A model generated the notes under the pieces. The model saw only the letters and a program-made list of their open reading frames with translations, had not been told where the DNA came from and did not search any database. From a virus (taxonomy: Duplodnaviria > Heunggongvirae > Uroviricota > Caudoviricetes), in IMG/VR virus record IMGVR_UViG_3300045988_007046, positions 1-51,479 of that record: a stretch of DNA of 51,479 bases. One strand, given 5' to 3'. A program made the position numbers and the translations under genes. Positions 13,764 to 16,003 of the stretch are shown here, one piece after another; position 1 is the stretch's first letter, and every line of letters begins with the position of its first letter.

Positions 13764-13840
13764 CTCTGTTTAGCTCAGCTTGGTAGAGCGTTCCGTTTGG
13801 GGCGGTAAGGCCGGAGGTTCAAGTCCTCCAACAGAGACCA
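13764..13840 (+). tRNA. tRNA-Pro (anticodon TGG)
   Basis: Hand-folded: acceptor CTCTGTT/AACAGAG with C1-G72, T-arm GGAGG-TTCAAGT-CCTCC, anticodon loop TTTGGGG, CCA encoded. Confidence 0.65.
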
Positions 13841-14015: not shown

Positions 14016-14092
14016 TGCGGGTATAGAGAAAGGGCGTCTCACATGTCTCATTAGCATGGTATCGGCAGGTTCGACTCCTGCACCCGCCTCCA
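14016..14092 (+). tRNA. tRNA with CAT anticodon (Met or Ile2), with a 1-72 mismatch
   Basis: Acceptor TGCGGGT/ACCCGCC (U1 opposite C72), anticodon arm CATGT-CTCATTA-GCATG, T-arm GCAGG-TTCGACT-CCTGC, CCA encoded. Confidence 0.55.
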
Positions 14093-14574: not shown

Positions 14575-14706
14575 CAGAAGACCGTTTACAGCAAAACTTA
14601 AACAATCTATTTCTCCGGTAAAGAAAAGGCGAAGGTTCGATTCCTTCACTCGGCAGATGTCGAGTTGGTGTAATGGTAGCACTTAAGATGATAAACAACG
14701 GTCTGG
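14575..14706 (+). ncRNA. structured element E4: CAGAAGACC...GGTCTGG closing helix enclosing a tRNA-like module (Y-RNA/YrlA-like candidate)
   Basis: Closing helix AGACCGTT (14579-14586) with AACGGTCT; inside: perfect T-arm GAAGG-TTCGATT-CCTTC (14631-14647), 7-bp hairpin ACTCGGC-AGAT-GTCGAGT (14648-14665), D-arm-like GTGT-AATGGTA-GCAC (14668-14682). Confidence 0.4.
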
Positions 14707-15014: not shown

Positions 15015-15090
15015 GCTGGTATAGTTAAGAAGGTTATAACACTCCCCTGATAAGGGAACATCGGTGGTTCGATTCCACCTACCAGTACCA
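15015..15090 (+). tRNA. tRNA-Ile (anticodon GAT)
   Basis: Acceptor GCTGGTA/TACCAGT, anticodon loop CTGATAA, T-arm GGTGG-TTCGATT-CCACC, CCA encoded; starts 1 nt after the preceding tRNA. Confidence 0.7.
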
Positions 15091-15097
15091 ATTTCAA

Positions 15098-15136
15098 TAA
15101 AGTTGTTGACATTGAGATGTGACTACTTTATAGTAA
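15098..15136 (+). promoter_or_regulatory. sigma70-like promoter candidate inside the tRNA array
   Basis: AATAAAGTTGTTGACA with TTGACA at 15106-15111, exact 17-nt spacer, TATAGT at 15129-15134. Confidence 0.55.
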
Positions 15137-15294
15137 CCTTAGTTTTCGTTGCGTAGCGTCTATTTTGCAAATTTAAAATAAATGCAAACGACAATGTTTT
15201 TCTGGCAGTAGCTTGATAGGCTAAACACCAGTGAGGTCTTCCAATCCCTCATCAAAGAATTTGGCGTACTCGCCCACGGTATGATTAATAAGGT

Positions 15295-15336
15295 GGGCAT
15301 CTTTAAGGGCTTTCTAAGAGAGTCTTTAAAGATAAT
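15295..15336 (+). promoter_or_regulatory. spacer hairpin (ATCTTTAA...TTAAAGAT inverted repeat)
   Basis: 8-bp inverted repeat enclosing GGGCTTTCTAAGAGAGTC; related to other spacer hairpins carrying TTCTTA/CTAAGA motifs. Confidence 0.35.
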
Positions 15337-15338
15337 TA

Positions 15339-15420
15339 CGGGGCGTATCTCAGCGGTCTTCTAAACCGCCGTTAACCGAGTAAGTGGAGTATGCGGGTTC
15401 GAGTCCTGCCGCCTCGACCA
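15339..15420 (+). ncRNA. atypical tRNA-like element (possible aberrant tRNA-Arg TCT or pseudo-tRNA)
   Basis: Good acceptor CGGGGCG/CGCCTCG, T-arm GCGGG-TTCGAGT-CCTGC and CCA, but the only anticodon-like hairpin GCGGT-CTTCTAA-ACCGC lies 7 nt after the acceptor (no room for a D-arm) and is followed by a 23-nt extra region. Confidence 0.3.
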
Positions 15421-15563
15421 ATTTAGTTAGCAGATTACTTAGACGACCTAAGCGTGTCTTCCTGTAAGGAGGTGGTCTGTATCTCATGTTTTCCAGAACA
15501 TGTAAATAATCTGAGAAGGGGCTTTACAGTGTTGCGAAAATACGGTAAGCTTCGAATTACAGT

Positions 15564-15646
15564 ATGGGACGATGTTAAGACTCTAAGGCATGAGCAACGG
15601 CCTCCAAAACCGTTTCAAAGGGGTTCAACTCCTCCGTCCCATGCCA
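15564..15646 (+). tRNA. tRNA-Trp-like (anticodon CCA) with extended D region
   Basis: Exact acceptor ATGGGAC/GTCCCAT, anticodon loop CTCCAAA (identical to canonical Trp loop), T-loop TTCAACT, CCA encoded; about 7 extra nt between acceptor and anticodon stem. Confidence 0.4.
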
Positions 15647-15659
15647 AAGTCTTATTAGG

Positions 15660-15750
15660 GGTAGGTAGCGGCTAATGGTAGCCAAACTGTCTTGAAAACA
15701 GTTGCCACTGTAGAGATACGGTGAGGGTTCGACTCCTTTACTTACCGCCT
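15660..15750 (+). tRNA. tRNA-Ser (anticodon TGA), long variable arm
   Basis: Acceptor GGTAGGT/ACTTACC, anticodon arm ACTGT-CTTGAAA-ACAGT, long variable arm, T-arm GAGGG-TTCGACT-CCTTT; 3' CCA only partly encoded. Confidence 0.65.
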
Positions 15751-15900
15751 AATAAGATTTACACCGTCCATGCTTGCTCGCATTTTCGGTTTATCCCTCG
15801 TGTATTGTCGTACACTGATAAAGCACCTAGTAGGTGTCACGGAGAAGAGATAATATCAAGCTCTCCAAAGGTTCTAGTCACCGGATTAAACAAGACTATG

Positions 15901-15925
15901 CAAAGACCTATTTAGGTCTTTTTAG
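15901..15925 (+). terminator. terminator-like hairpin inside the tRNA array
   Basis: AAAGACC-TATTT-AGGTCTTT followed by TTTTA. Confidence 0.4.
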
Positions 15926-16003
15926 AGGGCTTCTAAGGTTATTAGTCGCTTGTTGTGGAACCTTGTTGCTCAGGTTCTTAGAAGTTCTCTAAAAAGATTT
16001 AAT

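Follow-up and report, generated by a model that had tools for sequence, protein, structure and literature searches.

Two probable non-canonical tRNA genes of a Felix O1-like phage: a putative tRNA-Arg(UCU) with a relocated D-arm and an atypical tRNA-Trp(CCA)

Two odd loci in a phage tRNA cluster

The window is the whole 51,479-nt stretch of DNA analysed here, the IMG/VR virus record IMGVR_UViG_3300045988_007046. Over the tRNA region it matches the Felixounavirus Escherichia phage vB_EcoM_ASO1A at 99.7% identity, and many Felix O1-like phages (genus Felixounavirus) at 94–98%. ARAGORN in default mode lists 25 tRNAs between positions 13764 and 18916, all on the + strand, which cover 19 amino acids. 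Trp and Arg(UCU) are missing from this set, and these are exactly the anticodons of two odd tRNA-like loci, at 15339–15420 and 15564–15646. We propose that both are probably genuine tRNA genes of a Felix O1-like phage, non-canonical and functional, and that the two together most likely make the phage set for 20 amino acids complete. Their sequences best support placing the first in an arginine-specific class of phage tRNA that is widespread, apparently has not been described and has its D-arm relocated (hereafter the rewired tRNA), and reading the second as a lineage-specific tRNA-Trp variant. The nearest GenBank records leave both loci unannotated. When the entire window was scanned for modules of a T-arm with a closing acceptor, only these two CCA-ended units came up beyond the 25 known tRNAs.

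Both loci have a 7-bp acceptor with a discriminator and CCA, and an anticodon arm with a 5-bp stem and a 7-nt loop that carries U33 and a purine at position 37. Both also have a T-arm with a 5-bp stem and a UUCRANY loop, although in the second gene the stem consists of four pairs plus A·C and the loop is TTCAACT. A D-arm at positions 10–25, 2 nt past the acceptor strand, is absent from both. The parts of the first gene are as follows.

15339–15420, + strand: rewired tRNA-Arg(UCU) gene, 82 nt including the encoded CCA (Rfam tRNA 31.7 bits, family covariation, allelic with canonical tRNA-Arg(TCT))
15339–15345, + strand: acceptor 5′ strand CGGGGCG, pairing with CGCCTCG at 15410–15416 (7 bp, G3·U70 in the window copy)
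15346–15352, + strand: connector TATCTCA, read as U8, A9, U22, C23-U24-C25 (15349–15351, the D-stem 3′-strand equivalent) and A26
15353–15369, + strand: anticodon arm GCGGT-CTTCTAA-ACCGC, with the anticodon TCT at 15360–15362; all five pairs covary
15370–15377, + strand: linker CGTTAACC from the anticodon stem to the relocated D-stem strand (4–10 nt across subfamilies)
15378–15380, + strand: putative relocated D-stem 5′ strand GAG; the core was found also when left out of the search pattern
15381–15388, + strand: D-loop-like TAAGTGGA, read as U13 A14 A15 N U G18 G19 A20
ending at 15392, + strand: GTAT, closing on the A21 and U48 equivalents just 5′ of the T-arm
15393–15409, + strand: T-arm GCGGG-TTCGAGT-CCTGC (Rfam alignment, family covariation)
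15417–15420, + strand: discriminator A73 and encoded CCA, read from the sequence

The preliminary description had reported an acceptor helix, a T-arm and CCA at 15339–15420. These are borne out, the 7-bp acceptor including one G·U, and the sole anticodon-like hairpin does begin 7 nt past the acceptor strand, with 23 nt between it and the T-arm. The accompanying remark that there is no room for a D-arm is right for the linear order, but a D-stem and a D-loop exist elsewhere in the chain. The Rfam tRNA model scored 31.7 bits on 15339–15417, against a gathering threshold of 29, with the D-arm deleted and 20 nt inserted. It had also been envisaged that standard tools might give ordinary cloverleaves with other boundaries; ARAGORN and Rfam refolded neither gene in this way: ARAGORN default finds neither, Rfam deletes the D-arm and the -mt mode keeps the same bounds for the Trp gene. 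ARAGORN with -mt -ps60 yielded only overlapping artefacts on the Arg gene, and the -i, -ps and -ps80 options yielded nothing useful on 15090–15760 (-ps80 gave a spurious Pyl). Among 144 loci with a rewired gene, the default mode recovered the gene in 4.

The putative rewired tRNA-Arg family

Pattern searches of IMG/VR, progressively relaxed, yielded first 37, next 44 and finally >119 loci with the rewired form (>140 loci overall). In 29 distinct subfamily sequences, 99.4% of the cells in the acceptor, anticodon and T helices were paired, and 15 of the 17 pairs showed double changes; none of 500 shuffles was as good, and no slid register came close. All seven acceptor pairs are doubly changed somewhere in the rewired family. 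Across a wider set of 93 distinct members, the acceptor stem takes 75 different sequences and the anticodon stem 42.

The region 3′ of the anticodon arm always has the core GAGUAAnnGGA or a variant, which reads as a D-stem 5′ strand plus D-loop (G10 A11 G12 U13 A14 A15 N U G18 G19 A20). The GAGTAA..GGA core, GGA included, reappeared with a search pattern that did not require it. The CUC of the 7-nt connector pairs with the GAG directly 5′ of the D-loop UAAGUGGA, now 3′ of the anticodon arm, and across the family connector positions 4–6 pair with the 3 nt immediately 5′ of TAANTGGA. When both strands were set by position or register only, in 88 sequences, D-stem pairs 1 and 2 were 100% Watson-Crick, with four pair types each, and pair 3 formed in 74%. 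Overall, 91% of the D-stem cells were paired, compared with 54% upon shuffling (0 of 2000 shuffles reached the observed value) and 43–50% in slid registers. Fifteen trinucleotide combinations were present, e.g., CTC/GAG, CGG/CCG, CCC/GGG, CAC/GTG and CTT/AAG. A class-II-like variable arm, that is, a self-contained hairpin in the 23-nt region, was tried and rejected, as RNAalifold found only an invariant 2-bp CG/CG there and the covarying partner is the connector.

The connector opens with UA (U8 A9) in 92 of the 93 members. The two bases before the T-stem, positions left free in the pattern, are A in 89 and T in 92 of the 93, consistent with A21 and with U48 as the Levitt partner of A15. The relocated D-stem and the conserved A-U therefore give the order acceptor, U8-A9, D-stem 3′ strand, A26, anticodon arm, linker, D-stem 5′ strand, D-loop, A-U and T-arm. 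Relative to a normal tRNA, the segment 10–21 would be shifted to between 44 and 48, with three new joins (9 to 22, 44/45 to 10, and 21 to 48). In the crystal structure of yeast tRNA-Phe, A9 touches the 12-23 pair, 45 touches the 10-25 pair, and 21 touches the 8-14 pair beside 15-48. Each new junction would thus connect residues that are adjacent in the known tRNA fold. The helices of the L-shape and the bases of the tertiary contacts (U8-A14, A15-U48, and G18/G19 with the T-loop) would all be retained, and we infer a normal L-shaped fold for the rewired tRNA.

In Escherichia typing phage 1, Sf14 (Shigella, Mooglevirus) and SUSP1 (Suspvirus), the slot of the first gene is filled by a canonical 77-nt tRNA-Arg(TCT) with homologous flanks. 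This canonical tRNA-Arg(UCU) has the loop CUUCUAA, the T-loop type, A/G73 and CCA in common with the rewired form, and the same D-loop form AAnUGGA(U)A with A20 (its D-loop is AAUUGGAUA); both presumably do the same AGA job. In the rewired form, however, the D-stem 5′ strand and the D-loop come after the anticodon arm, the acceptor leads into the D-stem 3′ strand, the D-stem has 3 bp, and the apparent 'variable region' measures 20–28 nt. The odd form is also present in phage REP10, where its annotation reads 'tRNA-OTHER Nd_NNN'; the REP10 hairpin differs from that of the window by a compensatory change (GCTGT/ACAGC vs. GCGGT/ACCGC).

The rewired form was found in 263 GenBank phage records, nearly all unannotated among the matches listed, and the canonical allele in 133 records, annotated tRNA-Arg. 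Carriers of the rewired form include Felixounavirus, Klebsiella phage Sugarland, jumbo phages of 310–383 kb, Vequintavirinae/Stephanstirmvirinae, and Serratia and Streptomyces phages. A scan of 185,579 species-representative bacterial and archaeal genomes, with the T-loop anchor GGTTCGA replacing GGTTC, gave 19 matches, of which 12 were true members, all on metagenome- or single-cell-assembled contigs. Most of these 12 belong to tRNA arrays with as many as 35 members, for which ARAGORN lists other Arg isoacceptors and no UCU; the rewired gene occupies the gap. A canonical Arg(tct) accompanies the rewired gene at only 5 of the 144 loci mentioned above.

The bacterial arginine identity set comprises A20 (the main determinant), C35, U/G36 and A/G73 (PMC9976931). 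In the rewired family GGA is present in the relocated D-loop, the anticodons are all NCU or NCG, and 85 of 93 members have A/G73 (57 with G as the discriminator, 28 with A, 7 with U and one with C). An encoded CCA is present in 51 of the 93, as with ordinary tRNA genes. The anticodon loop is CTTCTAA, CTTCTAC or one with another Arg anticodon. With the anticodon loop unconstrained, the window's subfamily gave UCU only, plus one CCU. A structure-based scan of 270 loci (2.3 Mb, many dense tRNA arrays) added the anticodons ACG, CCU and UCG; no non-Arg anticodon was found on the rewired scaffold in these loci, which had been retrieved via Arg-anticodon patterns. Two rewired Arg isoacceptors occur together on several contigs. 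In the 50 window open reading frames (ORFs) of at least 120 codons, AGA makes up 45% and AGG 11% of the arginine codons. The Felix O1 genome paper noted that AGA is over-represented relative to the host and that a tRNA for AGA 'might have been expected' (PMC3185647).

The probable tRNA-Trp(CCA) gene and neighbouring RNAs

The second locus has the following parts.

15564–15646, + strand: atypical tRNA-Trp(CCA), 83 nt with encoded CCA (ARAGORN -mt Trp(cca), compensatory changes)
15571–15580, + strand: connector GATGTTAAGA from the acceptor stem to the D-stem, 10 nt vs. 2 nt in canonical tRNA
15581–15594, + strand: D-arm CTC - TAAGGCAT - GAG; the middle pair switches in relatives
15596–15614, + strand: anticodon arm AACGG-C-CTCCAAA-A-CCGTT, with the anticodon CCA at 15604–15606
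15619–15635, + strand: T-arm AGGGG-TTCAACT-CCTCC, first pair A·C

The exact 7-bp acceptor (ATGGGAC/GTCCCAT), the loop CTCCAAA and the CCA described earlier for this locus all stand, and the discriminator is G73. The reported surplus of about 7 nt in the D region is real, but we count 8 extra bases and place them in the acceptor-to-D connector, not inside the D-arm. The metazoan-mitochondrial mode of ARAGORN calls Trp(cca) with bounds identical to 15564–15646, those of the preliminary description, with no call in the default mode. Rfam gave only a sub-threshold tRNA-Sec match on 15566–15640 (23 bits).

The Trp gene is conserved in Felixounavirus and Mooglevirus, and the 10-nt connector GAUGUUAAGA is invariant in the copies of both genera; the SUSP1 homologue has 2 nt (AG) at this place. 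The D-arm has a 3-bp stem and the loop UAAGGCAU. In Sf14 and three further loci (L258, L259 and L269) the D-stem changes from CTC/GAG to CAC/GTG (middle U-A to A-U). In L258 and L269 the anticodon stem changes from AACGG/CCGTT to GTAAG/CTTAC, with four pairs changed on both sides, and the second T-stem pair is U-A in place of G-C in Sf14. The acceptor varies one-sidedly (A1-U72 to G1·U72 in some relatives). Compensatory changes are present in three of the four Trp helices, with six pairs doubly changed, a number that none of 500 shuffles reached. The D-stem TTAA/TGAG drawn by ARAGORN is unsupported, since CTC/GAG covaries.

The anticodon stem comprises five Watson-Crick pairs and a conserved C·A adjoining the loop CUCCAAA. 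T-stem pair 1 (A·C) counts as 'other' in 8 of 8 sequences and never forms. Pairing of G15571 with C15635 (G8 with that C) could give an 8/4 acceptor/T branch, the form drawn by ARAGORN. The identity elements of tRNA-Trp are A1-U72, G73 and the anticodon CCA (PMC9976931), and those recognised by TrpRS are present here (A1-U72, or G1·U72, G73 and CCA). According to a 2025 publication, Sf14, which carries the same Trp gene, has tRNAs for 19 amino acids (PMC12482277); the gene therefore went unrecognised. A promoter-like TTTACA-17-TAAGCT lies 5′ of the Trp gene.

The features next to the two genes are as follows.

15106–15134, + strand: sigma-70-type promoter TTGACA-17-TATAGT, the best match in the tRNA region (11/12) and an annotated promoter in the ASO1A record
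15140–15338, + strand: co-transcribed unannotated RNA of ~200 nt, whose 3′ end abuts the 5′ end of the rewired tRNA
15140–15169, + strand: antisense domain vs. the host transfer-messenger RNA (tmRNA), the first 30 nt of the upstream RNA
15184–15219, + strand: tmRNA-like tag template ANDNVFLAVA followed by TGA TAG, a 10-codon frame with the tmRNA-like resume context AAAAUAAAU before GCA
15421–15563, + strand: spacer between the two tRNAs, conserved in typing phage 1, Sf14 and SUSP1 and partly in Hena2

The promoter is predicted to drive the upstream RNA plus the rewired tRNA-Arg. Positions 15140–15169 are antisense to E. coli ssrA nt 76–107, which span the frame-setting region, resume codon and codons 2–6, with a predicted duplex of −27.1 kcal/mol (0 of 60 shuffles as good). 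For the swi2 and UTK0002 homologues the predicted duplex extends over ssrA nt 64/67–107 (−34 kcal/mol, z = −4.7, and −35 kcal/mol, z = −6.8). In Sf14, SUSP1, Hena2 and Det7 the same ssrA site is best, but 3–8 of 60 shuffles do as well (z = −1.1 to −2.0). The 5′ 10-mer, written UAGUUUUCGU or TAGTTTTCGT, exactly complements the host tag codons ...AC GAA AAC UA (D-E-N-Y) and is retained in unrelated phage families, although their own tags differ at these codons. It is exact in 51 of at least 101 distinct IMG/VR elements, and nearly all others have a 7–9-mer core. Nearly all of these elements also have the 10-codon tag pattern A-N-[D/E]-x-x-[F/Y/V/I]-L-x-x-A, in ~18 variants, and the hairpins downstream of the tag frame covary. 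Homologues are present in L004, L260, L010, L007, L008, L009 and >100 IMG/VR loci (L290–L39x).

The upstream RNA has no tRNA-like domain in cis, and neither a standard nor a permuted tmRNA was found around 15140–15420 or in Det7, UTK0002 or Hena2; the tmRNA call in swi2 borrows a neighbouring tRNA-Met and is probably spurious. On this evidence the upstream RNA could dock on host tmRNA and either block trans-translation or swap in its own tag. No phage anti-tmRNA RNA was found in the literature searched, the coverage of which is incomplete, and the supplements of the tmRNA database paper contain nothing on these phages. A half-motif, TCTTTAAGGGCTTTCTAAGAGAG, lies at 15300–15322, at the 3′ end of the anti-tmRNA RNA and just before the rewired tRNA. 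It is related to a near-perfect long hairpin, GGTCTTTTTAGAGGGCTTCTAAGG ... CTTAGAAGTTCTCTAAAAAGA, at 15915–15997, immediately 5′ of tRNA-Leu(tag); both may be processing signals.

The spacer at 15421–15563 holds no recognisable tRNA, as had been stated earlier: ARAGORN and Rfam give no tRNA-family match at or above threshold. Its conservation among the genera of Ounavirinae is high, and the Sf14 and SUSP1 copies carry inserted helices. The idea that it forms a stable structured RNA was rejected (folding z = −0.9, unexceptional). The spacer has TAAGGAGGTGGTC at 15465–15477, which is also able to pair with AGACGACCT upstream. The 3′ end of 16S rRNA (…GAUCACCUCCUUA) could pair with TAAGGAGGTGGTC over 13 nt with one wobble.

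Elsewhere in the cluster, tRNA debris lies at 14598–14700 inside the 430-nt gap between tRNA-Asp and tRNA-Lys. It consists of a partial tRNA at 14598–14648 (anticodon arm plus T-arm; Rfam 22 bits, under threshold) and, next after it, an apparent 5′ acceptor/D-arm fragment, GTCGAGTTGGTGTAATGGTAGCAC. The tRNA-Met(cat) called by ARAGORN at 14016–14092 falls short of the Rfam tRNA gathering score; its homologue was given a low Cove score, 28.9, in the Felix O1 paper (PMC3185647).

Further tRNA-like units were seen in other phages. In SUSP1 (L005, 658–777), directly 3′ of the canonical tRNA-Arg, a unit of ~120 nt runs from GGTCAAG through the T-arm GTAGGTTCGACTCCTAC to CTTGACT-G-CCA with a large internal insertion, and is uncalled by ARAGORN. 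In Kuravirus vB_EcoP_HC-25922 (L014), two elements follow straight after the rewired tRNA-Arg (1602–1630 and 1642–1756), and ARAGORN makes no call on this locus. The first comprises an orphan T-arm, an acceptor 3′ strand and ACCA; the second is a 115-nt tRNA-like RNA with the acceptor GGGCUA/UAGUCC (G3·U70), A73, CCA and a long insert, which looks alanine-like or like a tmRNA tRNA-like domain (TLD). Kuttervirus Det7 (L007, 455–521) has an acceptor GGUGAGG/CCUCGCC, a D-arm and a T-arm, with ~16 nt for an anticodon arm, ~190 nt upstream of its anti-tmRNA/tag RNA. A conserved motif, CACTTGATYGAGGTC ... CTGTAAAATGAATCCACNGAGTG, within a closing helix, lies beside the tag RNA in the unrelated phages UTK0002 (L009, 589–645, upstream) and Det7 (L007, 848–905, downstream); Rfam gave no match on the loci that hold it at an E-value up to 0.05.

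Probable functional tRNAs and the rival readings

Non-canonical functional tRNAs, one of the possibilities raised by the preliminary description, is the best supported, by the covarying helices, the identity nucleotides, the missing anticodons and the allelic replacement of tRNA-Arg(UCU). Because compensatory base changes occur in both genes, their conservation goes far beyond chance. The processing, aminoacylation, decoding and three-dimensional fold of both tRNAs are predicted from these features. RNase P would free 15339–15420 from the transcript of the promoter at 15106, and host ArgRS would charge it via A20, C35, U36 and A73. The tRNA would read AGA (and AGG); AGA is the commonest arginine codon of the phage and is rare in the host. 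The gene at 15564–15646, with its 8-nt insert before a 3-bp D-stem and its lengthened anticodon stem, would provide the only tRNA-Trp(CCA) of the phage, and host TrpRS would charge it (A1-U72, G73, CCA anticodon).

Several observations weigh against this interpretation. ARAGORN in default mode calls neither gene, and the Rfam scores are marginal (31.7 bits) or sub-threshold. In the rewired family, D-stem pair 3 is mismatched in 26% of the members, several 'invariant' stretches were imposed by our own search patterns, and the Arg-only result comes from a biased sample (loci retrieved with Arg patterns, their flanking arrays being scanned without an anticodon constraint). The window copy has G2-C71, G3·U70 and A73, the alanine identity set, so that mischarging by AlaRS or a dual identity of this copy is possible; G3·U70 is limited to 10 of 93 family members. 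For the Trp gene, the comparison covers only 8 distinct Felix/Moogle-type sequences from IMG/VR and GenBank, the T-stem is weak (A·C and G·U, with U·U in some relatives), and the REP10 copy has an acceptor mismatch and changes at 32 and 38.

It is unlikely that the two loci encode folded but non-decoding RNAs, either decoys or sponges for tRNA-targeting nucleases or tRNA-binding factors, or RNase P/RNase E punctuation. That phage tRNAs can counter tRNA-cleaving defences is well established; in the window the anti-tmRNA RNA runs up to the rewired tRNA, which might set its 3′ end; and elsewhere among phages the position 3′ of the upstream RNA is taken by a canonical tRNA for Arg or Leu. Such roles, however, leave unexplained the strict Arg anticodons with A20 and A/G73 and the filling of the UCU gap in full arrays, and fit poorly with 45% AGA; the rewired family also occurs without the upstream RNA. 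The same point bears on the view of 15339–15420 as an Ala-charged mimic of the tmRNA TLD, which would form a two-piece tmRNA with the upstream tag RNA or titrate SmpB, and which we regard as highly improbable. The G3·U70 and A73 of the window copy, the lack of a D-stem at the usual place, the immediately preceding RNA with its tmRNA-like tag template, a T-arm and acceptor that resemble the permuted-tmRNA model (12.6 bits), and the precedent of the TLD-only tmRNA of mycobacteriophage DS6A (PMC4131195) would all suit it. But G3·U70, in 10 of 93 members, is not conserved, and the gene has a covarying 5-bp stem that closes an Arg anticodon loop on itself, while tmRNA lacks an anticodon arm. Conservation of the upstream RNA is just as strong in phages with a canonical tRNA-Arg or tRNA-Leu in the slot, many phages have the rewired tRNA without it, and ARAGORN finds no tmRNA in the window. 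The TLD reading was dropped on the variable 3-70 pairs and the conserved Arg anticodons of the family.

Decay of one or both loci, as pseudogenes of tRNA-Arg or tRNA-Trp with indels, is hardly credible. The gene finders reject them, the cluster contains tRNA debris (14598–14648, 22 bits), 'pseudo' tRNAs are listed in published Felix-type genomes, and the Trp T-stem is weak. Against this stand the compensatory substitutions in the helices of both genes, which do not fit the broken helices, uncompensated changes and patchy occurrence expected of pseudogenes, as well as 75 distinct acceptor stems on an otherwise conserved core, the spread of the family over unrelated phage families and environments, and the retention of identity nucleotides and CCA. 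We also consider it very unlikely that a functional Trp gene reads UGA besides UGG through an altered hinge (10-nt connector, 3-bp D-stem, and a longer anticodon stem with C·A). In E. coli tRNA-Trp(CCA), changes at position 9, at 24 (the Hirsh mutation) and at the top of the anticodon stem give UGA read-through (PMC13092985), and the present gene is altered in the same region. Its anticodon stem, though, is longer, not shorter, and TGA is not avoided, because it ends 10 of the 50 long window ORFs and 25.5% of the ORFs of the related phage UAB_Phi87; a suppressor role was rejected on this ground.

A more ambitious proposal for the first locus is conceivable, though we hold it to be rather doubtful. 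The rewired scaffold would be a distinct Arg-specific tRNA topology, retained and passed around by phages because it is acceptable to ArgRS, EF-Tu and the ribosome and yet evades a factor that senses the canonical D-arm geometry of tRNA-Arg, and the unit under the promoter at 15106 would be a translation-takeover module. Candidates for the evaded factor are a host anticodon nuclease, a host defence system and a phage enzyme acting to deplete host tRNAs.

Known systems resemble the two genes in part. Metazoan mitochondrial tRNA-Ser(AGY/UCU) likewise has a short connector and no D-arm between the acceptor and anticodon stems (PMC7609411). Mitochondrial tRNAs that lack the D-arm have lost the D-loop/T-loop contacts and are organellar, whereas the rewired tRNA keeps a relocated D-arm and a normal length (75–81 nt), and belongs to phages of bacteria. 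Circularly permuted and split tRNA genes (Cyanidioschyzon, Nanoarchaeum) have an altered segment order, and processing restores a canonical mature tRNA. In the rewired tRNA, by contrast, the rearrangement is internal, there is no sign of re-joining, and the mature RNA itself would have a new topology. To our knowledge, the strand order of the cloverleaf is treated as universal outside organelles, and the known exceptions lose arms and do not re-join them. The Trp gene can be drawn 8/4, with tRNA-Sec as its best Rfam match, and in this recalls tRNA-Sec and the allo-tRNAs with an 8/4 or 9/3 branch (PMC5389517, PMC7609411). Unlike these it has a short variable loop, a Trp anticodon, TrpRS elements and a 9–10-nt connector; the bases of the 8/4 form are invariant. 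With the tmRNA TLD and its DS6A version (PMC4131195) the window Arg copy shares the missing usual D-stem, G3·U70, A73 and a tmRNA-like neighbour, but the rewired tRNA has a conserved anticodon arm with Arg anticodons, and its G3·U70 is unconserved. No description of the rewired scaffold or of the odd Felix-type tRNAs was found in the literature searched, the incomplete coverage of which makes this weak evidence of novelty.

These data suggest that (i) the annotations of hundreds of phage genomes, among them those of Felix O1-type therapeutic and typing phages, lack a tRNA-Arg(UCU) and a tRNA-Trp that the genomes most likely carry; (ii) analyses of codon usage and tRNA complement change accordingly, e.g., for the '19 amino acids' of Sf14 and the 'missing' AGA tRNA of Felix O1; and (iii) tRNA gene finders need a model for the rewired class. 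A widespread rewired tRNA in tractable E. coli and Salmonella phages would provide a test of the core needs of ArgRS, RNase P, EF-Tu, modification enzymes and the ribosome.

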